In this document: in pieces, positions 10,401 to 36,633 of the stretch
How positions within the stretch are numbered: position 1 is the first letter of the stretch
Layout of the letters: every line of letters begins with the position of its first letter
DNA from: a virus
Taxonomy: Duplodnaviria; Caudoviricetes
Direction: 5' to 3' (one strand)
Virus record (IMG/VR): IMGVR_UViG_2832142748_000002
Span: 10,418 to 74,417 of that record
Length of the DNA: 64,000 nt
Made by a program: the position numbers and the translations under genes
The notes under the pieces: model-generated
The model's database searches: none
Told to the model about the DNA's origin: nothing
What the model saw: only the letters and a program-made list of their open reading frames with translations

Positions 10401-10878
10401 CGAGGAGTGCCACAGGATGCGGCTCGAGGATCGGCCGTCTCTGCCGGAGGAGCGCTTCGGTAAGGAGTTGCTGCGCCTGGAGTCCTTCAAGATCGTGGTG
10501 CGCCGGCAGTGGAAGGGGCCTGACGGGCGGGAGCACCGCGAGTGGCGTTTCCGCCATGACAAGCTTCAAGAATTCTTCATCGCCCAGGCACTCCTGGGGC
10601 AGGGCAACCCCCGCATTGCCCAGCACATGGACGATCCGCGCTTCCGGGGCGTCTACTTCCTGTTGGCGCTGCTGATGGATCCGGAGAGCGCGCATCAACT
10701 GCGAGATCGGCTGGTCGTTCACGCCGCCAGGACCCGCGACCACAGCGTGAGCGATGAGTTCGTCACCCTGCTGGAGGCGCGGCGCAAGTCCGAGCAGCTC
10801 CTGCATGCGCCGCCCCCGCGACCGCAGGATGACTCAGATCCCTCAAACAAGCACGGAGGAGGCGAGCGCGTGGCATGA
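7417..10878 (+). CDS. Signal peptide + HEAT repeats + transmembrane helices + NACHT/STAND-like P-loop NTPase
   Basis: MPRQILTLWLCATMTLGDLAQA signal; about 15 repeats of 31 aa (LKDPxxxVRxAAAxALGxMGEAAKEQAPLLV); hydrophobic segments FAWTWVGHLCFWLLLLFVY and ITGFGYVGLLLTWVPIL; Walker A GASGLGKS; Walker B LDIYIDGLNE. The start could also be 7381 or 7405. Confidence 0.85.
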   Translation: MPRQILTLWLCATMTLGDLAQAAQTQQAQDVSPRLRGLLAALDDPSGQVAAGALRLLIKEKRVPDEQIPRLGRMLKDPNPQTRLDTAQALGVLGKAAKQHAPLLTGLLRDPDVSVRQAAAEALGAMGEAAKDQAPLLVDMLKDPDVNVRIAATFALREMGKAAQDQTLRLTGLLKDQHGGVRAAAVQVLVAIGKVPKEEAPHLGDLLKAPKESVRYAATQALGALGEAAKEQAPLLVGMLKDPDSGVREAAVLALGNMGEAAKEQAPLLVGMLKDPNENVSRGAAKALGAMGEAAKEQAPLLVDMLKDPDWSILIPALQALQAMGKAAREQVPRISNLLKDPSPFRRIVAAELLGHMGEAAKEQAPLLVGMLKDPNENVSKGAAKALGALGETAKEQAPYLADMLKDPNEKVRDAAVQALQYMGKAAKDQAPHLVGLLKDPEKDVRKEAAAALGAMGEAAKEQAPYLADMLKDPDEKVRLAAAKALSDMGEFDRKYAPLALELLENETVQYDYEAKGLLMTMAPLELQHVVLLLAKASANPWDRNDWLLCAHVTGGGEPPVERVLRWLPRRAFAGLPTELTLEEARETMHAFAVVWQHSGKYPDLRDDLAEQIVRVASLTKGQWTLTDDKLLVQHQTNLKASYPAHAERLQAIRSSLESWGRVKTFAWTWVGHLCFWLLLLFVYPRSPQVQAVFFWNPWVRTITGFGYVGLLLTWVPILRRRLLAPFANQLLADADLERFPKESYFHGSQVFIPSAGRSVPLLSAVPQLRGQVVLEGASGLGKSLFIRYLLRHSKQLTVFLPAERCREGVLEAIQAKLEGHAKDTAFLQSIIYSGALDIYIDGLNEVTADTRARIVQFVERNFHGNILLATQRMEWTPPITARLYVLQPLSDAQVSEFLASREVLLGEKARLRGPEYLQSCERFVQRVLAPEQPEELRLSMREVLSNPMDLTVIAQMLGEGHSPDLFRLRQQQYELMARDYLEVNLAEFPLNGFAEECHRMRLEDRPSLPEERFGKELLRLESFKIVVRRQWKGPDGREHREWRFRHDKLQEFFIAQALLGQGNPRIAQHMDDPRFRGVYFLLALLMDPESAHQLRDRLVVHAARTRDHSVSDEFVTLLEARRKSEQLLHAPPPRPQDDSDPSNKHGGGERVA
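8187..8583 (+). repeat. Near-identical intragenic HEAT-repeat copies
   Basis: About 100 bp at 8187-8286 recurs at 8484-8583 with one mismatch that I could see; further related copies lie between ~7750 and 8880. Confidence 0.85.
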
Positions 10879-21407: not shown

Positions 21408-22691
21408 ATGCGAATCATTGAAGAAATCGACAGTGGCGGCTTCGGCAAAATCGAGAAAGTAGAACTCTCAGACGGCACAATCGCCGCAAGAAAGACTTTC
21501 TCACCCAGCGTCAAGGTGGCAACCAATGAGGAGCGCGAGAAGCTAAGAAAACGATTCTGCCGAGAGGTGCGAATTCAGCGCGGACTATCGTCCGACCTGT
21601 TCCTGCCGGTGCTTGACGCCGATCTTAACGGGCCCGCACCTTGGTTCACAATGCCGCTCGCCGACAAGTCATACATTGAGCAGATCGAAGAAGACAAGCA
21701 GTCCGGGATCATTACCAGCGAAGCTCTTGCAGACATTCTTAACGGATTAGAGGAACTACACAGGCTTGACTATGTACATCGTGACTTAAAACCCGCGAAC
21801 ATCCTTCTTCACGAAGGAACATGGAAACTGGCCGATTTCGGGTTGGCCTTGCCTCCGAACGGAGGGACATCCAGACTGAGTTCGCAGTATTCAGCGTGGG
21901 GCTCAGAACACTATGCAGCCCCCGAACAATACACCGACTTCTCAAACGTTCGACCTTCTGCCGACATCTACTCGTTCGGCTGTATTCTTCACGATCTCGT
22001 AGCAAACGCGAGCAGAATCCCTTATCAGCGGCAAACCTGTAGCGGGCCGTTCGCCCCAATCATAGAAAAATGCACCGAAACAATCCCAACAAAGCGCTTC
22101 AAGACAATTAGCGGGCTTCGATCCGCACTTCTAGGTCTCCTCGCTCAGCCGAACAGCATCAAGATCTCTCTCGAATCAGGGGAGTGGATCAAAGAACTCG
22201 ACTCAGTCAACACCTGGACAATCGAAACTGTCGCAAACTTCGAGCGCTACTTAAAAACAACCGACACGGAGCAAAAATGGGCCATCCTGGATAAGTTCAA
22301 TGAAGAAACTATCACCATCCTGTCGAAACTCGACCCAGACCTTTGGCTGTCGCTAGGGCTGGTTTATTCCGACTGGGCACGCGGATCATTCGACTTCTCA
22401 TACTGCGACGTGGTTGCAGTGCGCCTGCTCGCCATCTTCAAGTCGACAAGCTCACTGGAGCTCAAGGCATCCATTGCGCTTTCCCTTGCCGAACTTGCAT
22501 ATTCCCACAATCGCTGGTTCGTCATGGAACGACTATTCACGATTTGCGGTCACAGTTGCGACGCAGCCGCAGCCGCTCGAATCGCTCTTGAGATCCAGGC
22601 AGAGGAGTTTCAGAGGCCATTCAAGAGATGTGCAGAGGGAATTCGGCGCACGCCAACCATGTTCCATCCAATTATCGCAGGTGTCCTCTGA
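21408..22691 (+). CDS. Hanks-type Ser/Thr protein kinase (AT-richer moron, antisense to the late genes)
   Basis: GGFG, ARK, HRDLKPANIL, DFG, YAAPE and DIYSFG motifs all present; helical C-terminal domain; no TM. Confidence 0.95.
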   Translation: MRIIEEIDSGGFGKIEKVELSDGTIAARKTFSPSVKVATNEEREKLRKRFCREVRIQRGLSSDLFLPVLDADLNGPAPWFTMPLADKSYIEQIEEDKQSGIITSEALADILNGLEELHRLDYVHRDLKPANILLHEGTWKLADFGLALPPNGGTSRLSSQYSAWGSEHYAAPEQYTDFSNVRPSADIYSFGCILHDLVANASRIPYQRQTCSGPFAPIIEKCTETIPTKRFKTISGLRSALLGLLAQPNSIKISLESGEWIKELDSVNTWTIETVANFERYLKTTDTEQKWAILDKFNEETITILSKLDPDLWLSLGLVYSDWARGSFDFSYCDVVAVRLLAIFKSTSSLELKASIALSLAELAYSHNRWFVMERLFTICGHSCDAAAAARIALEIQAEEFQRPFKRCAEGIRRTPTMFHPIIAGVL

Positions 22692-22712: not shown

Positions 22713-23252
22713 CTAGTTCGTTGCCCCAACGGCTCTGTCCTTTCCGACGCCAAGCAACCAGTCGCGAAAGGCGGGCCAGGAGTCCTCAGTGATGAGTCCG
22801 CGTGCGGCAGCGTTCGCCTGCCACTCGCGGATGAGCCCGTCACCGCGCTGGAGCAGCCAGGGCCGCCCGAAGGCGGTCCGCTGCTCCAGCATGTACTTCT
22901 CGAACTCGGCCACCGTCTGCTCGAACGTGGCCAGCGGGTTGAAGACGAGCCAGTCGTAACCCTTGTCCTTCGCGTAGAAGCGCTCGTCCTGGCCGACCAT
23001 CTCTACGGTGGAGTACTTCCCCCAGTCGTCGCTGCTGCCGGGGGCCGCGCCCGCGGACTCCAGCTGCACCAGCTCCTGCTCGAGCGCCGACTTCTTCACC
23101 AGCGTGGCGGAGTTCACCTCAGCGGCCGCGCGCGACAGTGCGGCTGAGGCATCGAGCTGCCCCTTGATGCGGGCGATCTCCAGCCGCAGGTCCCGCTTTC
23201 GGGCCTCGTTGGCGTTGATGGTGTAGACGTCGCTCTGCGTGAGGGTGGGCAT
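22713..23252 (-). CDS. Hypothetical tail-associated protein
   Basis: Follows the tail fibre with GGAG RBS; N-terminal coiled coil. Confidence 0.7.
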   Translation of the reverse strand: MPTLTQSDVYTINANEARKRDLRLEIARIKGQLDASAALSRAAAEVNSATLVKKSALEQELVQLESAGAAPGSSDDWGKYSTVEMVGQDERFYAKDKGYDWLVFNPLATFEQTVAEFEKYMLEQRTAFGRPWLLQRGDGLIREWQANAAARGLITEDSWPAFRDWLLGVGKDRAVGATN

Positions 23253-23261
23253 GGCCGACTC

Positions 23262-25397
23262 CTAGATGGGCTGCTTGATGTTGTGGCTGAGGAGGCCCGC
23301 GGACTCGTACGTCCGGGCCCCGTGCACGGTGAGCTTCACGACGGCGCCCTCCCCTTCCGGCGCGACGCGCCGCACGAGCCCCGGGCGCAGGCCCTCCAGC
23401 AGCTCGCCGGGCCGAAGCGCGCGGACCTGCGTCCAACCTGCGAAGCGCCGGTAGACGAGGTGGTTGGGCGTCGCAACCAGGACGCGGCCATCCGTCAGCT
23501 CCACCCGCCAGCGCGCGGCCCGGTGGCTGGAGGCGGCCGTCACCTCAAAGGTGCCCACCCGGCGCGTGTCCTCGTGCTGGGTGAGGACGCGCATGCCGGG
23601 GCGGATGGACGCCGCAGGCACCTCCTGCCCGTCCTCCAGCGTGATGAGCGTCTCGGGCGCTACGCATGTGCCGCCCGTCCCGCCGGAGCCGCCGCCGCCG
23701 CCACCCGCGGGCGCGCCACTGAAGGGCGAGGTCGTGGACTTCGCGAAGTTGATGCCCAGCCCGGCGCCGAACGTGGGGGTGAACCACATGGAGGCGCTCA
23801 CGCCGTAGACGCCGTGCACCTCGCACAGGAGCGCGACGTACTCTCCCAGGTTCTGGCCGTAGAGCCCCGAGAGGGCCGCCGGGTACTGGAAGGTGTGGGT
23901 GATGGCGATGCGGTTGACCGCGTTGCCGTCCACTGCGGCGGCGTACTTCCGGTCCGCGAGGGTGATGTAGCGCGTGCCCCGGTACGTGGCGCTGACGCTG
24001 CTGTAGTAGTCCACCTTGAGGTAGCGGAGCGCGTCGAGGTTGTCGTCGATGCTGGAGGGCTGGATGAAGAAGTGGTGCACCAGCCAGGAGTGGACGATGG
24101 GCGTCGTGTACCGGAAGTAGTCCGTGCACTGGACGTCCAGCCGGTCAATGAGCGGCGCCCCGCCGCGCACGCCCGTGTTGTTGCTCCCCCGGTAGTGGAC
24201 GCGCCCCGCGGCCGATGTCCCATCCAGCGCCTGGTTGGCCCGGAAGAAAGGCGTGTCCAACAGGTAGCTACCAATCTGCACGTTGCCGCCGGCCGCCTTG
24301 AAGGCGGTGCCCACGTTGTCTAGCTTCGCCCCGGCGACGGGCACGCCGTTGCCGTCCTCCGCGTAGTTGGACGTCTGGAGGGTGTTGGCCACAAGCAGGT
24401 CGAACGTCACCATCTTCCGCATGGAGATGGCGTCCAGGTACACGGCCTTGCCGGCGTCCGCTCCCACGGCATTGAGCTCGAAGTACAGCTGCACGCCGGT
24501 GCACCCGGCCGGGCACGTGCCCTTCAGCTTCACGCGCTGGTAGCCCGTCGTGAGCGTGACGGCGACGGAGGTGATCTGACCGTCGTAGCTGCCGCTCGCC
24601 CCCTCCCAGAGAAGGAAGAGCGTCGCGCCAGACTGGGCGAGCGCGGCCGAGGACTTCACCCAGGCCTCGGCGTAGAACTGATCCCCAGCGGTGCACTTGA
24701 TGCGGCCACCGGGTGCGGTGCTCCGGTAGCCGCCGATGAAGTTGAGGCCCACGAAGCCGCCCCCCACGGGCACGGGCAGCTTGCGGCACCAGCGCCCCTC
24801 CTTCGCGCTGGAGGGCTCCTCCACCAGCCTGTCACCCTCGGGGGACTGGCCCAGTGCGGCCGCGCCGGCTTCCGAGTACCCGTTGGGCACCAGGTTGTCC
24901 GTGGGCGGCAGCAGCAGGTGCGTGAAGCTGATGGCCGCCGCCGCCACCGCGGCGCTGGTGACGGAGCTCGCCGACATGTGCCGGGCGTAGACGCTCCCCG
25001 TCGGCACATTGGAGAGGTCCGCCACTGCCATGGTGAGGGTGTCCGGGTCCGCCACCACGCTACCGCCGAGGACGCGCCAGTTGCTCTGGCTGCCGTTGGT
25101 GTAGAGGGCCTGGACAGCGCACTGCACCTCCGTCGGCAGCTTCAGCTTCAGCGGCGCCACCCACCGTCTCTCGGAGGGGCCGAACTTCCGGGGCTCCAGC
25201 AGGTAGCTGTCCGTGTTGTTGGGGTCGCTGCCCTCGTAGACGACGACCTGGAAGCCCGCGAGGAGGTGCGCGGGGAGCACCTCCTCGTGCGTCCAGCGGA
25301 TGTCCAGGTAGCGCGACTTGACGAGCTGTGGGGAGCGGACGCCGTCCACCTCCCGGTCGTAGACGCCGGCCGCTTCTTCCTGCTCGCGCGAGCGCAT
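23262..25397 (-). CDS. Tail fibre/tip protein with carbohydrate-binding-like domain and C-terminal Hint domain
   Basis: Follows gpJ. NLVPNGYSE...FYAEAWVK CBM-like segment; Gly linker; Hint 23280..23666 (C1, ATPNH, LLSHN) followed by IKQPI. Confidence 0.88.
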   Translation of the reverse strand: MRSREQEEAAGVYDREVDGVRSPQLVKSRYLDIRWTHEEVLPAHLLAGFQVVVYEGSDPNNTDSYLLEPRKFGPSERRWVAPLKLKLPTEVQCAVQALYTNGSQSNWRVLGGSVVADPDTLTMAVADLSNVPTGSVYARHMSASSVTSAAVAAAAISFTHLLLPPTDNLVPNGYSEAGAAALGQSPEGDRLVEEPSSAKEGRWCRKLPVPVGGGFVGLNFIGGYRSTAPGGRIKCTAGDQFYAEAWVKSSAALAQSGATLFLLWEGASGSYDGQITSVAVTLTTGYQRVKLKGTCPAGCTGVQLYFELNAVGADAGKAVYLDAISMRKMVTFDLLVANTLQTSNYAEDGNGVPVAGAKLDNVGTAFKAAGGNVQIGSYLLDTPFFRANQALDGTSAAGRVHYRGSNNTGVRGGAPLIDRLDVQCTDYFRYTTPIVHSWLVHHFFIQPSSIDDNLDALRYLKVDYYSSVSATYRGTRYITLADRKYAAAVDGNAVNRIAITHTFQYPAALSGLYGQNLGEYVALLCEVHGVYGVSASMWFTPTFGAGLGINFAKSTTSPFSGAPAGGGGGGSGGTGGTCVAPETLITLEDGQEVPAASIRPGMRVLTQHEDTRRVGTFEVTAASSHRAARWRVELTDGRVLVATPNHLVYRRFAGWTQVRALRPGELLEGLRPGLVRRVAPEGEGAVVKLTVHGARTYESAGLLSHNIKQPI

Positions 25398-25407
25398 GCC
25401 CTCCCAT

Positions 25408-27888
25408 TTACGGAGGAGGCGTGGACGAAATCCCCAGGGTAAGGGTGGCAGGCACCGTGGGCACGGACACCACGAGGACGCTCGCCGCGCTGGTGCTGTA
25501 GTTGCCCGAGGTGTCGATGGCCTTCACGTGCACCAGCTGGTTGGTGCCCGGCGCCGGCAGGGCCCATTCGTAGGTGGTGGCTCGCACCTTGCCGATGAGG
25601 CTGCCCACCTCCCAGCTGCTGCCGTAGCGCAGCTCGTAGGTGTCCCGGTCCAGGTCCGGCACCTCCGCCCAGCGCAACGTCGCGGTGCTTCCGTTGAGGA
25701 CGCAGGTGAGGCCCGTCACGTTGGAGGGAGGGGCCGCCTTGCCCACCACGGTGTGGCTGGCCGAGGCGTAGGTGGTGACGAGGCCGTTGAGGACGGCGGC
25801 CACCTGGACGGTGTACTCGCCCGGCAGGCAGTCCTGGAGCTCCCAGAAGTGCGTCTGCACCGGTGGCTCCGACGTCCAGTTGCCGCCCTCGCGCCGCCAG
25901 CGCACGCGGTACTCCGTGGCCGTGGCCACCTGCGTCCAGCGGGCCGTCACCATGACCTTCACGCCACCATTCGTCGTCTTGTACAGCGACTCGCCCACCG
26001 CGAGGCCCGCAGGTGGCGCGGACGAGGGCAGCACGGACGTGGGCAAGGGCTGCAGCTTCACGCCGTGCTCCACCTCCGCGTACTTCCCCGGCTCGTGGCG
26101 CAGGGCGGTGATTTCGTAGAGGTGCGGCTCCACCTCCGCGACGTTGAGGATGCGCCAGAGGGTGGGCGTCAAGTCGGACGCGGCCAGCACCCAGACGGCC
26201 TGGGGCTGGGGCGCGGCCGAGAAGGGCGTGGCCACCGTGAGGGCCCGGTACGGCGCCGGCGCGAGCGCGGCCAGCGGGCGCTCCTCCACGGTGCCGTCCG
26301 GCAGCACCGCGGAGAGGGCGTACGTCTTCCCTGCTTCCAGGGTGACGTCCGCGTCGAGCTCCACCTGGCTGGCGGTGGCGGCCACCACGCGCCCGCCCCA
26401 CCTGCGCCCGGCGCGGTATGGGTCCTGGAGCTTCACCACGGCGCCGGGGTTGCGCATGGCGCCCTCGAAGCCGGTGCGGAACGTCACCGTCTCCGTCTCC
26501 AGCCTCTCGGTGAGGAGCAGCCACCGGCCCACGCGCTGCGCCTGGCCCCGGGAGGTGCAGCCGAGCGCCACCACCTCGGTGGGGTTGTAGCCGTAGGTGG
26601 CGAGGCCCTCTTCGTCGGTGACGTACTCCTGGGCCACCTTGAAGTGGTTGTCCGGGTCGTTCCAGCTGACGAGGGCCACCGTGTGGCGTGCGCGCTTGCC
26701 GCTGGAGGCATACGTGAAGAGGCCCTCCACCACGTTGGCCGGCGTGAAGAGGTACTCGGCGTCGCGCGGCGCGTCCTGGGCGACGAAGACGGCGCCGGAG
26801 GCCCAGTACGTCATGCCGCGGAAGACGGACGCGAGGTTGTTGATGACCTTGTACGCGTCCTCCTGCGTCTGGAGGTAGAGGTTGCAGCGGAAGCGCGGCT
26901 CCATGCCGCCCTTCCCGTCCGGCACCAACTCGTCGCAGTACTTCCCCACCGTGTAGAGGCCCCATTTGTCCACGGCGGCCTCGTTGAGGTAGCGGCCCAG
27001 GCCGTAGCGCTTCGTCGTCAGCAAGTCGTAGAAGCACCAGGCCGGGTTGTCCGTCCAGGCCACCTTCCACGTGCCGTCCCAGGTGCCCTCGTACGTCCGG
27101 GCCACGGGGTTGTAGTTGCTGGGCACGCGCACCCGCAGCCCGCGAATCCGGTAGCTGCGCGTGGGGATGCTGCTGAACTGGCTCGCCGGCACCTGCAGCG
27201 CGCAGAGGGCGGTGTTGGGGAAGGAGAGCTTCTCGTCCAGCAGCGTTGCGTAGGACTTCCAGAGGACCTTGTTCTGCTTCGTGACGCTGTCGGCCTCCTC
27301 GCTGACGCGCGTGACGCGGATGTCCCACGGGGGCGAGCCCGTCAGCTCCACGCGGAAGGTGCGCTCGTAGGGGCTGGTGCACTTCCCGCGGAAGAGCTCC
27401 GCGCCCTGGAAGGACTGCTCCACGTAGCCGCCGCCGTTGCTCTGCACGGCGATGGAGACGAGGACGCGGGTGGGCAGCAGGTCGCCCGTCGTCGGATCCT
27501 GGTAGGTGAGCTGGGGCGCCTGGAGGGTGACGCGCACGGCGTCCACCCCCGGGTCCGTCACGGTGCGCACCACCGGGGTTGCGTGCTTCACCTCCACGCC
27601 CACGGAGTACTCCGCCTCGCCGGACGGGAAGCCGGGGATGTACTCCTGGGACTGCGTGCCGCGCACGTCGTAGACGGTGACGCCGGTGAAGTTGAAGGTG
27701 CCGTCGGGATTCTGGATGGCGACGCCGTCCAGGTAGACGGACTTCAGCCCGTCGACGAGGCCCTGAATCTCCCCCTCGCACAGCAGGTCCAACACGCGCG
27801 CCTTGGAGCTGGACTTCAACGTGTTCGGAGACTCGACGGGCGTCCGCTGGGCGCCGCCCTCCCCCTTGCCGCCGCTGCTGCCACCCAT
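25408..27888 (-). CDS. Lambda gpJ-like central tail tip protein
   Basis: DLLCEGEIQGL, WTDNPAWCFYDLLT..RYGLG, EPRFRCN, GRRWGGRV, FN3-like C-terminus. Confidence 0.95.
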   Translation of the reverse strand: MGGSSGGKGEGGAQRTPVESPNTLKSSSKARVLDLLCEGEIQGLVDGLKSVYLDGVAIQNPDGTFNFTGVTVYDVRGTQSQEYIPGFPSGEAEYSVGVEVKHATPVVRTVTDPGVDAVRVTLQAPQLTYQDPTTGDLLPTRVLVSIAVQSNGGGYVEQSFQGAELFRGKCTSPYERTFRVELTGSPPWDIRVTRVSEEADSVTKQNKVLWKSYATLLDEKLSFPNTALCALQVPASQFSSIPTRSYRIRGLRVRVPSNYNPVARTYEGTWDGTWKVAWTDNPAWCFYDLLTTKRYGLGRYLNEAAVDKWGLYTVGKYCDELVPDGKGGMEPRFRCNLYLQTQEDAYKVINNLASVFRGMTYWASGAVFVAQDAPRDAEYLFTPANVVEGLFTYASSGKRARHTVALVSWNDPDNHFKVAQEYVTDEEGLATYGYNPTEVVALGCTSRGQAQRVGRWLLLTERLETETVTFRTGFEGAMRNPGAVVKLQDPYRAGRRWGGRVVAATASQVELDADVTLEAGKTYALSAVLPDGTVEERPLAALAPAPYRALTVATPFSAAPQPQAVWVLAASDLTPTLWRILNVAEVEPHLYEITALRHEPGKYAEVEHGVKLQPLPTSVLPSSAPPAGLAVGESLYKTTNGGVKVMVTARWTQVATATEYRVRWRREGGNWTSEPPVQTHFWELQDCLPGEYTVQVAAVLNGLVTTYASASHTVVGKAAPPSNVTGLTCVLNGSTATLRWAEVPDLDRDTYELRYGSSWEVGSLIGKVRATTYEWALPAPGTNQLVHVKAIDTSGNYSTSAASVLVVSVPTVPATLTLGISSTPPP

Positions 27889-27889
27889 G

Positions 27890-28948
27890 TCAGTCCTCCA
27901 CCGTTGGGTCCGCCTTCTTCACGTTGTGGCTGAGGAGGCCGTCGGAGACGTAGGTGTGCGCGCCCGCCACGGTGAGGCGTACCACCGGCCCGCGCTCACC
28001 GCGCGTCACCTGGCGCACCACGCCCGGCCGGGCGCCCACCAGTCGCGTGCCGGCCGCGAGGTGCCGCAGTTCCACCCAGGCGTCCTCCGTCCGCACGCGG
28101 TGGGTGCCGGTGGCCTCCAGGCGTCGGCCGTCCTCCAACTCCAGCAGCCAGCGGACGCCCTCGGCGGGCTCCGCTGCGATGACGGGGAAGACGTCCCACT
28201 CCAGCGTCTCCTCGTCCTGGGTGCGCACCGCCATGCCCACCTGGACTTCGCCTGCCGGCACTTCCCGGCCGTCCGCCAGGAGGATGGGCACCCACGGCGC
28301 GGGGCAGGTGCCGCCGCCAGGGGTGGTTCCGCCGACGCCCGTCTGTCCGCTGCCGCTGTTGCCCCCGAAGCCGCCGTCGGACCACTCGGTGACGATGCCG
28401 GCGGAGACGACGCAGCTGCCCACCTCCATCTCCCCGTAGCAGATGGGCACCGGGTGGCCCTGGGCGAGCGTGTTGACGGGGCCGTTGAAGACGTAGCTGG
28501 GCTTGTTGGCGTCCTTCTCGTCAGGCCCATTCGCGGTGGGCGGGGCGAAGAGGAGCTGGGAGACGCCGCCGGCCATCAGGGAGATGCCCGCGGTGATGAG
28601 GGGCACGCCCGCGCCGTACCCGTAGACGGAGAGGACGACGCCGGCGGCGATGAGCACCGCACCCGCCACCACCTGGAACCAGCCGGACTTCGCCCCGGCC
28701 AGCGCGGGCATGAGGGTGAGGACGCGCGCGCCGGTGGGCATGCCCAGGTCGTCCTCCCCCACGTCCCGCTTGCCCGCGAAGACGTGGTAGCCGGGCTCGC
28801 TGTTCTCCGCGAGGTAGCGCCGGAAGCCGTCGCAGACGGCCGAGAGGGCGCGCACCGCCTCCGCAGGCGAGGGCACCGAGAGGTCCATCTTCCACACGCG
28901 CCCGAAGCGCTTCCCCAGCGGACCACCCAGGACGATGGTCGTCAGCAT
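27890..28948 (-). CDS. Lambda gpI-like tail assembly protein (ubiquitin-like N-terminus) with C-terminal Hint domain
   Basis: LGGPLGKRFGR...SPAEAVRAL...LMPALAGAKSG, Gly zipper, FNGPVNTLAQGHPVPICYGE; Hint 27923..28306 (C1, ATGTH, LLSHN) followed by VKKADPTVED. Confidence 0.92.
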   Translation of the reverse strand: MLTTIVLGGPLGKRFGRVWKMDLSVPSPAEAVRALSAVCDGFRRYLAENSEPGYHVFAGKRDVGEDDLGMPTGARVLTLMPALAGAKSGWFQVVAGAVLIAAGVVLSVYGYGAGVPLITAGISLMAGGVSQLLFAPPTANGPDEKDANKPSYVFNGPVNTLAQGHPVPICYGEMEVGSCVVSAGIVTEWSDGGFGGNSGSGQTGVGGTTPGGGTCPAPWVPILLADGREVPAGEVQVGMAVRTQDEETLEWDVFPVIAAEPAEGVRWLLELEDGRRLEATGTHRVRTEDAWVELRHLAAGTRLVGARPGVVRQVTRGERGPVVRLTVAGAHTYVSDGLLSHNVKKADPTVED

Positions 28949-29673
28949 CGGGAGACGTGCCTCACGACGCGCTGGGTGATGCGCTCCCAGAAGCCGGAGT
29001 ACGTCTCCCGGCCGGACAGGCGCCCCATGACGTGGTGCAGGAGGACATCCCCGCCCAGGTAGACGCCCGCGTGGTTGGGCACCGGGGCGCGCAGCTGCAT
29101 AAGGAGGACGTCATGCTCGCGCAGGGCCTGGCCCGTCACATCCACGAAGCCCGCCCGGCCGAAGCCCTCCTGGTAGAGGTTGCCACCCTTCGCCCACCAG
29201 TCGTCCGGGCGCTCGAAGTCGGGCAGTGCCAGGCCCAGGCGCTCCCGGTAGTAGTCCTGGATGAGGGAGTAGCAGTCCAGGACGCCGTGGCTGAAGGTGC
29301 GGCCCACCAGCGGCGGCCGGTAGCCGTCCGGGTACCAGAGGCACCAGTGCCCCACCGGCACGTTGAGGATAAGCCAGGGCAGGCCCCAGCGCTCCATCAT
29401 CACCCGGTCCGCCTCGCTCGGCTCCGGCGCGGCGTTGGGGTGGGAGTGCACCACTGCCACCACCTCGCCATCCCCTTCCGCCCGCGCATAGTCCTCGGGC
29501 GACAGGACGAAGTGCGCCTGGCCGTCGGCGAGGTTCCGGCAGGGCCGGTACCGCTGGGCGCCTCCAACCAGCACCACGAGGCCGCAGGACTCGCGGGGAT
29601 AGTCCGCCTGGGCGTGTGCGAACGCGGCGCCCAGGACGTCATCAGCCAGCGTCAGCCGGCAGGGGTCGACCAT
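28942..29673 (-). CDS. Lambda gpK-like tail assembly protein (JAB + NlpC/P60)
   Basis: ESCG and HSHPNAAPEPSEAD JAMM motif; DCYSL and HAGVY NlpC motifs. Confidence 0.95.
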   Translation of the reverse strand: MVDPCRLTLADDVLGAAFAHAQADYPRESCGLVVLVGGAQRYRPCRNLADGQAHFVLSPEDYARAEGDGEVVAVVHSHPNAAPEPSEADRVMMERWGLPWLILNVPVGHWCLWYPDGYRPPLVGRTFSHGVLDCYSLIQDYYRERLGLALPDFERPDDWWAKGGNLYQEGFGRAGFVDVTGQALREHDVLLMQLRAPVPNHAGVYLGGDVLLHHVMGRLSGRETYSGFWERITQRVVRHVSRC

Positions 29674-29729: not shown

Positions 29730-30557
29730 TCAATGCTGCATCTCGTTGATGACCGCATCCACGAACTGCAGGCGACACTCCGGAGCGGGATGTTTCGACT
29801 GCGCTTCGCCCTCATCACATCGGATTGGCAGAACCAGAGCCGGCTGCTCGCACGAAACGGAATTGATCCCGGCATCGGCAAGATCGGCACGGGCGCGCGC
29901 AATCATCTTGGCGACAGGCGTATTGGGCGACTCGGCGAGAGCCCGGAGTTCCTCGTTCGTGACAACACCACCGTCGGCGCGCTTCATGTTTGGCCCTCTC
30001 AACCGGAGCATCAGCTGGAAAGAGCATGACTCAACGGAACGCGCGAACAGGCGCGCGCTCTCTTTATCTATTTTATCCTTCGCCTTTGGCCCGGCCCAGG
30101 CCACCCGACAGTCCTTGATGACGGGCCGCTTGAGGAGGAGGCCTCGCACTGTACCGTGGAAGGCAACAAGCTGCCCCTTCGCCAGCTCCGCGACGGCTTG
30201 CATCTGCTCGTCCGGAACAAGGCACATGACAGAGCTCATCATCTCGCCCACGTCCAGCGAGATGACGATGTTATCTGTCGCGTCCTTGGCAATGTCTTGG
30301 ATGAGTCCCGTCACCTCCACCTGCTTGCTGCGGTACTTCATGTCCGCTGCCACCTCGTTCTCGGCGTAAGCCTCCCAAAGCTGGCGCGGGCCCACGAGGA
30401 TGAGCCCTGGTGCGGCAGGAGCTGGAGGTGGACTGGGAGCCCTGGCGGCTGGGCCCGAGGTATCGCTGGGTGCTGCTGCCACCTGCTCCGGGGCCCGTCC
30501 CGCCTCCTGCTTGCACCCGACTACCGTCAGCACTGCAACAAGCCACCACGCGCGCAT
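29730..30557 (-). CDS. OB-fold lipoprotein (tRNA_anti-like family), moron
   Basis: Lipobox VVGC; QLWEAYAENEVAADMKYRSKQVEVTGLIQDI signature. Confidence 0.82.
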   Translation of the reverse strand: MRAWWLVAVLTVVGCKQEAGRAPEQVAAAPSDTSGPAARAPSPPPAPAAPGLILVGPRQLWEAYAENEVAADMKYRSKQVEVTGLIQDIAKDATDNIVISLDVGEMMSSVMCLVPDEQMQAVAELAKGQLVAFHGTVRGLLLKRPVIKDCRVAWAGPKAKDKIDKESARLFARSVESCSFQLMLRLRGPNMKRADGGVVTNEELRALAESPNTPVAKMIARARADLADAGINSVSCEQPALVLPIRCDEGEAQSKHPAPECRLQFVDAVINEMQH

Positions 30558-30650
30558 CGTCCCCTCCAGTGAGACGTGGGAGGACAGCACGGGGCACCAG
30601 AACGACGCAAGGAGTCGGGCTTGGCGGCGGGCGTCTCTGGAAAGGATGGA

Positions 30651-31160
30651 TCACACCTCCACCAGCAGAACCGCCAGGGCCAGCAGCCGCTCCCGGACGC
30701 GGGCGCGCAGGGTGGCGGCGGCGGCCACGGCACGGCGCCAGGCATTCAGCGCGGCGGACGCCTCGCGCGCCAGCTCCGCCAGCAGCAGCGGCACGGGACG
30801 ACGCGACAGATTCGTGGCCTGGGCGCAGTAATCACGTGCGGGACCCGTGCGGCCCGCGCTTCGGTACAGCGTGGCCCGGCGTGCGAGTAGCTCCGCGCGG
30901 GCCTCCCCTGACGCGGCGGACACCAGCCTGCCCAGTGGCTCCAGCCGCTCTGCCTCTTCTTCCGGCGTGCCCGTGCCGGGCGGAGGCAGCAGGTCCAGCA
31001 GCGCCTGTGCCGCCCACGCGTCCAGCGGCCCCTCCGCCAGTAGGCTGCGCAGCGAATCTGCGGCGGCGCTCGCGCGGCCCAGTGCGAGGCACAGCTAGGC
31101 TAGTTCGCGGCGGGCCTGACAGCGGGCGTCGCCCGCCAGCCGGGGTCGCAGTTCCACCAC
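30651..31160 (-). pseudogene. Internal fragment of a large host-type TPR/alpha-solenoid gene
   Basis: ELRPRLAGDARCQARRELA*LCLALGR...LLPPPGTGTPEEEAERL...AELLARRA; very high GC, in-frame TAG, no start. Confidence 0.7.
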
Positions 31161-31194
31161 GTCTCCCACGCCTCGCGCAAGTTGGCAAGCCGCG

Positions 31195-32124
31195 TCAGAT
31201 GACCTCGATGGTCGGCTCAGCGTCTTCACCAGTGCCAACTGCGAGAACGCTCCGCCGCCGAGCCGGGTCAGCCTTCGAGCGCTCCTTCGCAACTTTCTGA
31301 ACGAGGTCAGCTCGGTGGATGGTCGCGGCCGCTTCCGCCTTCACATCGTTCACGACCACGAGGCCGCAGGACGATGAGAGGTGACGGGGCACTCCTTTCA
31401 CCTTGACCGTCTCCCCGGAGAGCGATGCCAAGGCCGCATGCAGGCGACGCCGTGCCTGTTCCAGCGGAGTCGCTGGCATCACGACAACAACCTCATCACC
31501 GCCCTTTCTGTAGGCATCGCCCACGTCGGAGACTGCCTTTTCGAGGACATGGAAGAACGCCTTGATGGCCTCATCGCCAGTGGCGTGATCACCGTCCTCG
31601 TTGAATGCCTTGAGCCCGTTCATGTCGAGATAGGCCACAGAAACTGGCGAATCTGCCTGGATATTCATAATGGCGATCGCCAAGTCACGCTCAGCATAGC
31701 GTCCATCGTAAAGGATATCAAAAGGCTCTCGAAGCCGGGTCGCCCGAAGCTCGTCTTGCAGTCGCGCCAATTCCAGTCGACCCAGGTGGCCCATCTCCAG
31801 GCCTACAGTCTGCCCCGACAATAGCCGCCCGACAAGCAATGCCTGTTCTCGGCGGTCTTCGCTCTCCATCTGCTGGGCGAGCGTACTCGTGTATCGCATG
31901 TCGATAGAGTCATAGCCCCTTCGAGTATCGGGGCCATTGAGGATGCCGCGATGAATGAGCGACATCACCATTTGCATTTTTTTCGCGGACATGAACTCAC
32001 TCCCGCCCAGAGGGAATGAAACGCTAATCCAGCGCTCCTGCTCAAATCGAGCAAGGAACTGCAACTCGCGGAAACGAGCATCATTCACGTAGTCAGCCAT
32101 GCCGGATGGGTCCTCGTGCGCCAT
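31195..32124 (-). CDS. GGDEF-domain protein (putative diguanylate cyclase), moron
   Basis: YLDMNGLKAFNEDGDHATGDEAI...YRKGGDEVVVV...SSCG. The guanine-binding N and D are kept; no RxxD I-site. Confidence 0.85.
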   Translation of the reverse strand: MAHEDPSGMADYVNDARFRELQFLARFEQERWISVSFPLGGSEFMSAKKMQMVMSLIHRGILNGPDTRRGYDSIDMRYTSTLAQQMESEDRREQALLVGRLLSGQTVGLEMGHLGRLELARLQDELRATRLREPFDILYDGRYAERDLAIAIMNIQADSPVSVAYLDMNGLKAFNEDGDHATGDEAIKAFFHVLEKAVSDVGDAYRKGGDEVVVVMPATPLEQARRRLHAALASLSGETVKVKGVPRHLSSSCGLVVVNDVKAEAAATIHRADLVQKVAKERSKADPARRRSVLAVGTGEDAEPTIEVI

Positions 32125-35069: not shown

Positions 35070-35387
35070 CTACCTCAACTCGCGTCGTCGTAACAGCCTG
35101 CCCGCGTAGTCCCGCTTGGCGTAGCAGTTCGTTGCCCGGTGTCCTTTGTGGCCGCAGCGGAAGCACACGAAGCCTTTCGCACCGTGGATGCGGCCGTGGA
35201 CGCCTCGCGACACCGCAGTGAGGTTCTCCGGCCGGTTGTCCCCCTTGTCGCCGTTGATGTGGTGGACGACTTGCCCCTCTTGGAGAGGCCCCCCGAGCTT
35301 CTCCTCCATCGTGTAGACGTGGACGAACCGCATCCGTCCGTCACGGGCCCGGAACGTCTTGTAGCCGTTCTTCCATCCGAAGCTCAT
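35070..35387 (-). CDS. Small HNH endonuclease with C-terminal CCHC zinc knuckle
   Basis: VVHHINGDKGDNRPENL..VSRGVH; CFRCGHKGHRATNC = C-x2-C-x4-H-x4-C. Confidence 0.82.
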   Translation of the reverse strand: MSFGWKNGYKTFRARDGRMRFVHVYTMEEKLGGPLQEGQVVHHINGDKGDNRPENLTAVSRGVHGRIHGAKGFVCFRCGHKGHRATNCYAKRDYAGRLLRRRELR

Positions 35388-35519
35388 GCGGCCTCCTGGG
35401 TGCCCACGTGGCGGCAGTGCTACGTGGGGAACCCCAATAGCATACCACAAAAGACCACATTGGACCACCTGCACGAATGAATGAGCCCCGCATATGCGGA
35501 GTAGCCGCTGGGCGGCTGA

Positions 35520-36633
35520 GTTACTGACGACGCCAAGCTCAAGGCGAACGTGGAAGCGCGGCTGGTGCGCGTGGGCGACGCGCTGGTGGCGCTGGAGAAG
35601 GCCGCGCGGCTCGCGCCGGACGCGGCCGTGCTGCTGGACCTGGAGGACCTGAGCCTGCGCTGCGAGCGGCCCGAGCATGCCCGCAGTGCGCTGGAGTCGC
35701 TGCTGTCCACGCTGCCGCGCACCGCGGCGCCGGAGAAGCTGGCGGACGTGCGCGCGCGGCTGGGCCGGGCGTGTGAGCTCCTGGGCGACCGTGAGGGCGC
35801 CATTGCCGCGTACGCGCAGGCGTTCCCGCTGCGGCGGCTGGACGACGTGCGCGCCACTCGGCTGGAAGCCCTCTACACGGAGGCCGGCGAGATGCAGGCA
35901 CTGGCCGAGCTATGGGCCACGCGCGCGCAGGCGCTGGCGGGCGCGGACCGGTCGGAAGAAGCGGCGCCGCTGTTCTTCCAGAGCGCGCGCGCCCTGCTGG
36001 AGCGCGGGGAGAAGGCCGCCGCGCTGATGCGCCTGGCTTCCGCGCTGGAGGCGAGCCCCGAGGGACCGCTCGCCGCGGAAGTGCTGGAGGCCCTGGCCGA
36101 GCTGGAGCTGGAGCGCGGCGAGAAGCTGGAGGCGGCGCGGCTGTACGCGCGGCGGGCCACGCTGGTGCCAGAGGCCCGGGCGGGCGCGAAGCTGCTCTTC
36201 CGCGTCGCTGCTGGCCGCGGGCACCAGCCGCGAGGAGGCCTTCCTCGCCGAGGCGCTGGAGCGCGACGCGACGTTCGCGCCCGCGCGGATCCGCCGGGGC
36301 GAGCTGCGGCTGACCACGGATGCCCGCGCCGCGCTGGAGGACTTCGAGGCGGTGCTGGCCCTGCCGCCCGCGGACGTGGATGCCCCGCGTGAGGCGGAGC
36401 GCGTGGCCCTCACGCGCAAGGCCGCCACCGCCGCCGTGCGCGCGAACCGCACGGACGCGGCCCGGCGCCTGCTCGCGGAGTTCTGCGCGCGCACGCCGAA
36501 GGACTTGGACGCGCGGCTTGAGTTGGCCGCGCTGCACCGCAAGGCCGGCGCCAGCCGGGCCCGGGCGGACCTGCTGGCGGAGCTGTGGCCGCGCCTCGCC
36601 GGAGCCGCCCGCTGCCCGCCCTGCGAATCCTGA
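35520..36633 (+). pseudogene. Internal fragment of a large host-type TPR gene, frameshifted near 36201
   Basis: TPR-like helices (EGAIAAYAQA, EAARLYARRA); KLLFR continues as (A)SLLAAGTSREEAFL after a 2-bp loss; begins after an in-frame TGA at 35517. Confidence 0.75.

Follow-up and report, generated by a model that had tools for sequence, protein, structure and literature searches.

Why should a phage tail fibre end in a Hint domain, of the kind by which inteins excise themselves, when almost nothing follows it that could be rejoined? The question is raised by the fibre gene P0001, which lies in the 64,000-nucleotide stretch analysed here (the window; positions 10,418 to 74,417 of IMG/VR virus record IMGVR_UViG_2832142748_000002) and is part of an apparently complete siphovirus prophage in a Corallococcus genome. 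We consider it rather probable that the 134 C-terminal residues of this protein constitute a module resembling type-A bacterial intein-like (BIL) domains, which would act in a single turnover and in cis as a C-terminal cap that removes itself. The preliminary description of this locus had placed a Hint domain at the C-terminus of the fibre, and this proved correct; it gave no strand, however, and missed a second copy, carried by the neighbouring gpI-like protein.

The Hint domain of the fibre

The features on which the argument depends are the following (positions are those of the window).

23262..25397, minus strand: tail fibre gene P0001, 711 residues, with the stop codon TAG at 23262-23264
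23667..23717, minus strand: Gly-rich flexible linker, residues 561-577, ending G-G-T, so that the -1 residue is Thr577
23280..23666, minus strand: Hint domain, residues 578-706 (129 residues), from the family profile, AlphaFold, Foldseek and VIA
23664..23666, minus strand: codon of Cys578, position 1 of the domain and predicted thioester nucleophile
23460..23471, minus strand: block B, T643-P-N-H646, from the sequence motif
23280..23285, minus strand: codons, read directly, of His705-Asn706, the terminal block-G pair in LLSHN, at which Asn cyclisation is predicted
23265..23279, minus strand: C-flank I-K-Q-P-I, five residues, with Ile707 at +1
23274-23276, minus strand: codon, within the C-flank, of Lys708, the near-invariant +2 Lys of the family

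All the elements by which the domain had been recognised at the outset, namely the Gly linker, Cys1, the block-B TxxH, the block-F-like VVKLTV and the His-Asn pair, were found in the minus-strand sequence, as were the Ile at +1, which is not a nucleophile, and the C-extein of only five residues. A plus-strand reading of the interval gave nothing except stops and was discarded. The claim that the domain is intact holds for the catalytic Cys1, block-B His and His-Asn, but not for block F, as Arg695 (23313-23315, minus strand) stands in this fibre, and also in its clade, where the family has a His. No homing endonuclease is inserted in the domain.

Matches of P0001 alone to Pfam models fell below the curated cut-offs (Hint, 16.8 bits vs 29.7; Vint, 15 vs 27; Hint_2, 13.9 vs 28.4), and the same was true of the NCBIfam model intein_Nterm (18.6 bits vs 24.5), which indicates a divergent family missed by the existing models. 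When the single sequence was compared with PDB by phmmer, the result was swamped by matches of the Gly linker, mostly to WAVE1, and those to inteins were marginal; a family profile was therefore required. Such a profile, built from 58 short members and searched against solved structures, matched the Hint domains of 8w20 (1.8e-13), the NpuDnaB intein (3.3e-13) and the C. thermocellum BIL 2lwy (1.2e-10), that is, the intein as well as the BIL. The AlphaFold model of the domain has a mean confidence score (pLDDT) of 92, and its top Foldseek matches are Tetrahymena BIL2, the Ssp and Npu DnaB mini-inteins, Hedgehog and the C. thermocellum BIL, with E from 4e-11 to 5e-8 and TM scores of about 0.8. 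Comparison of the full-length model by VIA gave Z of 19.8-20.4 and a root-mean-square deviation (rmsd) of 1.5-2.1 over 130-140 residues for the best Hint structures, and Z of 18-20 across the matches to the Hint superfamily. As modelled, the C-terminus of the fibre is a genuine Hint fold, far beyond chance. A separate search with the last 46 residues, which was to reveal what flanks solved BILs on the C-terminal side, gave spurious beta-trefoil designs and nothing else.

Among the known systems, type-A BILs offer the nearest description. They possess the His-Asn pair of inteins and no +1 nucleophile (PMC4031507, which cites Amitai 2003 and Dassa 2004), and the mechanism proposed for them involves a thioester, cyclisation of Asn and attack of the freed amine on the N-terminal thioester, which amounts to ligation (PMC4031507; further background in PMC7765530). 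The products of BILs are mainly cleaved ones (PMC7664689). The fibre Hint shares with type-A BILs Cys1, the block-B His, the terminal His-Asn, the lack of both a +1 nucleophile and an endonuclease, and a location in variable, non-housekeeping proteins; to the C. thermocellum BIL (2LWY, profile E 1.2e-10) its fold is similar with Z 19.8 and rmsd 1.5 over 130 residues. Because the His-Asn motif and the missing +1 nucleophile fit the published description of type-A BILs, self-excision of the domain is supported. On the other hand, the domains of the fibre family appear to form a sequence family of their own, sit at the extreme C-terminus (4-6 residues after the Asn in 69/155 copies), bear a near-invariant Lys at +1 or +2 and are carried by phage tail proteins.

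Class-1 mini-inteins (NpuDnaB, 4O1R; SspDnaB, 1MI8) are similar in fold, with Z 20.4 and 29% identity over 131 residues for NpuDnaB, and blocks A, B, F and G can be recognised. The fibre Hint is nevertheless not a canonical class-1 intein: Ile stands at +1, the C-flank consists of five residues at the end of the protein, the host is no housekeeping protein with a conserved insertion site, and there is no extein to rejoin. As Cys, Ser or Thr is absent from +1, canonical splicing is impossible. The pretoxin Hint domain PT-HINT (PF07591; Hint region of 8W20) gave the best profile match among solved chains (1.8e-13) and is likewise found in large secreted or surface proteins, but it precedes a toxin domain which it is thought to release, whereas the fibre Hint is followed by a short peptide only. 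The PT-HINT model itself did not match P0001 at E<=1; 17/58 relatives matched it at E<=1e-3.

Conservation and the predicted reaction

A search of 1.84 billion representatives, clustered at 50% identity, with the 134-residue domain showed the family to comprise at least 672 clusters (E<=1e-3), of which 176 reached E<=1e-10. The 150 best-matching representatives provided 130-156 domain copies, which hardly differ at the catalytic positions. Cys occupies position 1 in 129/130 copies, while both the block-B His and the terminal His-Asn are present in 130/130; Ser or Thr stands three residues ahead of the block-B His in 118/130. The block-F His, replaced by Arg695 in this fibre, occurs in 101/130 copies and is retained in the gpI copy of the same locus. 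Among 25 fibre homologues, C578, H646, H705, N706 and K708 are invariant. Conservation extends beyond the Asn. The +1 residue is A, K, I, V, L or M in 136/155 copies, Ser or Thr in 11/155 and Cys in none, and a Lys is found at +1 or +2 in 145/155 (94%) and at +3 or +4 in the remaining 10. No C-flank is shorter than 4 residues; 69 are of 4-6, 33 of 7-15, 13 of 16-60 and 40 of more than 60 residues. A pair specific to the family, His608-Glu609 (23571-23576, minus strand), lies near domain positions 31-32 and is conserved in 98/130 and 114/130 copies, respectively.

Autoprocessing of the fibre C-terminus, which the preliminary description had proposed, is still the best inference, on the basis of the catalytic residues retained in about 130 diverged copies and of purifying selection. 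According to the mechanism that we propose, Cys578, aided by Thr643 and His646 of block B, would convert the Thr577-Cys578 peptide bond into a thioester, and Asn706, aided by His705, would cyclise and break the bond to the five-residue tail. The thioester would be resolved either by hydrolysis or by movement of the fibre C-terminus onto the released tail; the Hint domain, of about 15 kDa, would depart, and the mature fibre would end at the Gly-rich linker or just after it. Before its removal the cap might maintain the solubility of trimeric tail-tip components at their C-terminal ends, or block these ends sterically, until assembly, although this part is a guess. The copy on gpI would act in the same way and independently. 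Strict retention of the Asn, a minimum length of the flank and a Lys that is always near suggest that the tail takes part in the reaction and is not a leftover.

The closest functional analogy is provided by Peptidase S74 domains, C-terminal, self-cleaving modules which are discarded from trimeric phage tailspikes and fibres and serve as their intramolecular chaperones (PMC7824862). The likeness is functional only: P0001 has no Pfam match to S74, its fold is that of Hint, and the fold and Ser-Lys dyad chemistry of S74 are unrelated to it. Moreover, S74 directly follows a triple beta-helix and templates folding of the trimer, whereas the Hint domain is attached through a flexible Gly linker. 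If the predicted chemistry is correct, maturation of tails by autoprocessing evolved at least twice, the second time by a module unrelated to S74 and present, in hundreds of sequence clusters, on tail proteins of both siphoviruses and myoviruses. Receptor-binding proteins would then need a different annotation and modelling of their ends, the tip of the mature protein being other than the one encoded.

Several observations weigh against a cap that removes itself. Literature searches gave no biochemical evidence for any member of the tail Hint family, and the Pfam matches of the single sequence are under threshold. With so long and flexible a Gly linker, a role as a templating chaperone, such as S74 domains have, is less likely, and the AlphaFold model is one of the monomer, not of the trimer. 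Finally, since Arg695 replaces the block-F His, this particular fibre may perform the C-terminal step slowly or not at all.

How the thioester is resolved is a separate problem, on which the conserved Lys bears. In Tetrahymena thermophila BIL2, of the polyubiquitin-like locus BUBL1 (6Y75, 6TMM), the N-extein is reported to become attached, through an isopeptide bond, to a Lys in the C-extein (PMC8616854). This domain is the top Foldseek match of the fibre Hint (E 3.8e-11, TM 0.80), with a VIA Z of 20.1 over 140 residues, both flanks included, and by analogy the Lys of the tail family invites the same chemistry. In such Lys-directed isopeptide splicing, the epsilon-amine of the +1 or +2 Lys would take over the carrier's C-terminal carbonyl from the thioester at Cys1, and cyclisation of Asn would then free the Hint domain. 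Presence of a Lys no more than four residues from the Asn in 155/155 copies, a tail of at least four residues, and retention of the Asn although almost nothing follows it are consistent with this route. We regard it as tentative and, on balance, unlikely. BIL2 is the only related case so far. The identity to BIL2 is only 17-19%, and BIL2 lies between two ubiquitin-like domains of a eukaryote, whereas the N-extein here is a phage fibre and the C-extein a five-residue peptide. Alternatively, the Lys may be purely structural or a catalytic helper, or the alpha-amine route proposed for type-A BILs may be used. If isopeptide splicing did take place, a small branched peptide would form the end of the mature fibre and of gpI, and the family would represent a widespread, compact, ATP-independent module ligating proteins to Lys in phage tails. 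The domains are small (about 130 residues), need no +1 nucleophile and have a short conserved acceptor tail; should the Lys route hold, they could be natural tools for C-terminal modification of proteins.

Could the domain instead stay on the mature fibre, with no self-processing, as a distal knob or adhesin? The distal end is the usual site of receptor-binding knobs, and the change of the block-F His to Arg in this fibre clade would also fit. We nevertheless find this improbable. If the domain performed no chemistry, it would be difficult to see why 129-130 of 130 copies should have kept Cys1, the block-B His and His-Asn. The same cap is also present on gpI, an internal tip protein, and a flexible Gly linker would be atypical for a load-bearing tip.

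There is comparably little to be said for the domain being a selfish or neutral passenger derived from an intein, kept only because failure of its excision harms the carrier and of no benefit to the phage. Hint domains do derive from inteins or share ancestry with them, and in Myxococcota the family is patchy (17/301 genomes), but this patchiness tracks prophages and the homing endonuclease is absent. Selection also speaks against it. The window gene was codon-aligned with two IMG/VR provirus copies, and in all three pairs, at a synonymous divergence (dS) of about 0.2-0.4, the ratio of nonsynonymous to synonymous divergence (dN/dS) was 0.10-0.13 in the Hint domain vs 0.14-0.23 in the N-terminal 556 residues. 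The Hint domain is under purifying selection, and because one stop codon would suffice to remove a terminal domain harmlessly, this constraint, together with long-lived carrier-specific clades, argues for a needed function.

In several metagenomic proteins (P0045, P0063, P0066, P0096, P0111 and P0154) the Hint domain occurs as a tandem double copy, and in P0045 and P0096 the two copies are spaced by only about 6-7 residues which include a Lys, for example LVGKGG; should the two both be active, the outcome would be the release or re-ligation of a very small peptide. Internal copies, in which the Asn is followed by more than 60 residues, make up about a quarter of the total (40/155; metagenomic P0055, P0093, P0130, P0149 and P0123 are among them), and the C-terminal extensions of ten such proteins, of about 120-500 residues, had almost no PHROG match.

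A second copy and the carriers of the family

The other Hint domain of the locus lies on gpI and belongs to the same family.

27890..28948, minus strand: gpI-like tail-tip protein P0177, 352 residues, phrog_32 (1.6e-55 over residues 2-188)
~27923-28306, minus strand: Hint domain of gpI, Cys215 to Asn342, preceded by a Gly linker and followed by the tail VKKADPTVED

The two domains are paralogous (49% identity, E 7e-33) and are the only strong copies of the family in the 10.8-Mb genome. A weak third match, within a 685-residue open frame of another contig (C56:3284-3547; E 7e-4, 30% identity over residues 1-90), is probably a different type of Hint. In the 301 Myxococcota genomes sampled, the 17 with the domain are distributed patchily by genus. 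The pair of fibre and gpI, about 4.6 kb apart, recurs in five further genomes of this phylum, and others have either a fibre copy of the ~1080-residue class only, up to three per genome, or a gpI-type copy only. Fibre genes of about 1080 residues with a Hint cap occur three times in one Myxococcus-group genome (G245, contig C1), at 5516045, 6047423 and 6089256, which suggests repeated prophage-like units. A maximum-likelihood tree built from 22 domains unites the gpI-type copies in a single clade (support 100/99) and places those of fibres elsewhere, in groups according to fibre type; in no case do the two copies of one locus pair. Judged from these sequences, the caps are independent modules that stay with their carriers. 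A two-part system composed of the gpI and fibre Hints was considered and rejected, each being found alone and clustering by carrier.

The same evidence bears on a reaction in trans, in which the thioester would be attacked by a nucleophile of another tail protein or by a small molecule, leaving the fibre C-terminus cross-linked or modified in the virion. In Hedgehog, the Hint thioester is passed to an outside nucleophile, cholesterol, which makes such a transfer conceivable. Occurrence of the domain on two tail-tip proteins of one locus might also favour it, and BIL2 can pass its thioester to Lys residues of other proteins (PMC8616854). Covalent coupling of this kind had been suggested in the preliminary description, but our results do not bear it out and we give it a low probability. 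No candidate partner was identified, and the fibre and gpI Hints each occur alone in many genomes. A conserved gene just downstream of the fibre might have been considered for this role.

22713..23252, minus strand: conserved gene P0179, 179 residues, 9 nt downstream of the fibre stop

Its homologues (52-91% identity) directly follow Hint-capped fibres of about 700 residues in six loci, whereas none was found after the ~1080-residue fibres within the flanking sequence examined. P0179, for which family searches gave no match, may be an accessory or assembly protein of the fibre; as it accompanies the ~700-residue class only, we rejected it as a general partner of the Hint cap. Furthermore, with a Lys 1-2 residues from the Asn in most copies and within four in the other 10, the acceptor would already be available in cis rather than in trans.

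A bare call of the domain is not new, since NCBI labels close homologues of the fibre 'Hint domain-containing protein'. None of the literature searches brought up a Hint or BIL cap described for a tail protein of a phage. What appears new is that the tail-associated Hint domains form a family of their own, in which the short tail has a conserved Lys resembling an acceptor. PHROG matches of its short members are nearly all to tail proteins (gpI-type tail assembly in 7/58, tail fibre, tailspike and others), to which Pfam adds Mtd_N. Four further loci illustrate the range of carriers.

L008: gpK, gpI with Hint domain, gpJ (context read directly)
L040: Hint-capped distal tail protein of a siphovirus, followed by an amidase (context read directly)
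L041: unsplit gpJ of 1380 residues with a terminal Hint domain, in a lambda-like tail cluster of a metagenomic phage (context read directly)
L042: CBM-bearing (carbohydrate-binding module) Hint-capped protein of 2095 residues adjoining baseplate genes of a myovirus, on a 214-kb contig (context read directly)

In the contexts examined, the family caps distal tail proteins, be it gpI, whole gpJ, fibres or myovirus baseplate fibres. Its distant members are metagenomic and labelled 'hypothetical protein'. Other searches yielded little: a tblastn search of 50,697 GenBank phage records gave one match (MT835519, a faecal metagenome phage), a word-based search for longer homologues found close Corallococcus relatives only, and a search of IMG/VR with P0001 alone retrieved two near-identical proviruses and one distant contig.

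Fibre architecture and neighbouring genes

The part of the fibre that would remain after the predicted processing contains two further domains.

24408..24908, minus strand: beta-sandwich like those of CBM families 4, 16, 22 and 61, residues ~164-330, from VIA on the full-length AlphaFold model (pLDDT ~80-88)
23718..24140, minus strand: second beta-sandwich, residues ~420-560, from the AlphaFold model (strands 420-554), just before the linker

For residues ~164-330, VIA gave Z of 12-13 against carbohydrate-binding modules and about 11-12 against the phage fibre or tailspike chains 9euf, 5w6h and 7xyc, and the modelled domain is likely a glycan-binding module of the receptor-binding type. The PHROG match of P0001 is weak (tail-fibre phrog_18983, 2e-5); as this sandwich resembles both CBMs and fibre or tailspike chains, 'tail fibre' is a fair name. 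By its place in the tail-tip module after gpJ and its receptor-binding-type domain P0001 is a distal tail protein, and the model presents it as probably a glycan-binding continuation of the central tip protein. The analogy with Hedgehog-type transfer and the distal position of the cap beside the CBM-like domain are all that would favour an unprocessed Hint on the virion passing the fibre end to a nucleophile of the host surface at contact, which we hold to be very improbable, as the same cap is found on gpI, a protein not exposed at the surface for receptor binding, a thioester intermediate would hardly be expected to last in stored virions, and the Lys in cis argues for immediate internal resolution.

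The second sandwich is modelled with pLDDT mostly of 72-91, two blocks being lower (63 and 53). In the linker that follows, residues 565-577 read GGGGGGSGGTGGT, and pLDDT drops below 50 at residues 565-575. The homologous fibres all have their Hint domain at the C-terminus, behind a Gly linker, and in the family at least 4 Gly are found among the 12 residues preceding Cys1 in 90/128 copies. The junction DNA shared by the copies, GGCGGCAC(A/C)TGC, was dismissed as a separate signal, for it merely mirrors the common G-G-T-C residues. By protein, the closest relatives are all from Corallococcus, Myxococcus and Pyxidicoccus; the homologues of P0001, all of them from Myxococcota, come as two length classes, of about 700 and about 1080 residues.

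The fibre gene closes a tail-tip module whose order on the minus strand is that of the lambda type, gpK, gpI and gpJ, followed by the Hint-capped fibre.

28942..29673, minus strand: gpK-like protein (JAB and NlpC/P60), from family matches
25408..27888, minus strand: gpJ-like tip attachment protein, 826 residues, phrog_31 (1.4e-287), with Pfam FNIII-A_GpJ and Phage-tail_3

The gpJ-like protein consists of the N-terminal and FN3 parts only, and P0001, which has a Shine-Dalgarno-like GGGAGGG of its own, comes directly after it, 10 nt past the gpJ stop. No gpM or gpL was recognisable adjoining gpK. The structural module, also on the minus strand, includes TerS, TerL, portal, head morphogenesis protein, major head protein, tail protein and tape-measure protein, and several inserted genes separate the tape measure from gpK. 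Among these, the non-tail genes at 29730-32124 and 35070-35678 (minus strand) encode a tRNA_anti-like/Sie-like protein, a GGDEF protein and an HNH endonuclease. The GC content is high in the window (0.59-0.74). Just past the fibre module, on the opposite strand (21408-22691, plus), lies a gene for a Hanks-type Ser/Thr kinase (Pkinase, E 1.9e-26; phrog_2361). In the metagenomic phage with the unsplit gpJ, genes of the 7-deazaguanine/queuosine type (GTP cyclohydrolase I, PTPS, QueC and radical SAM) are located beside a DNA polymerase (L041:14937-21324).

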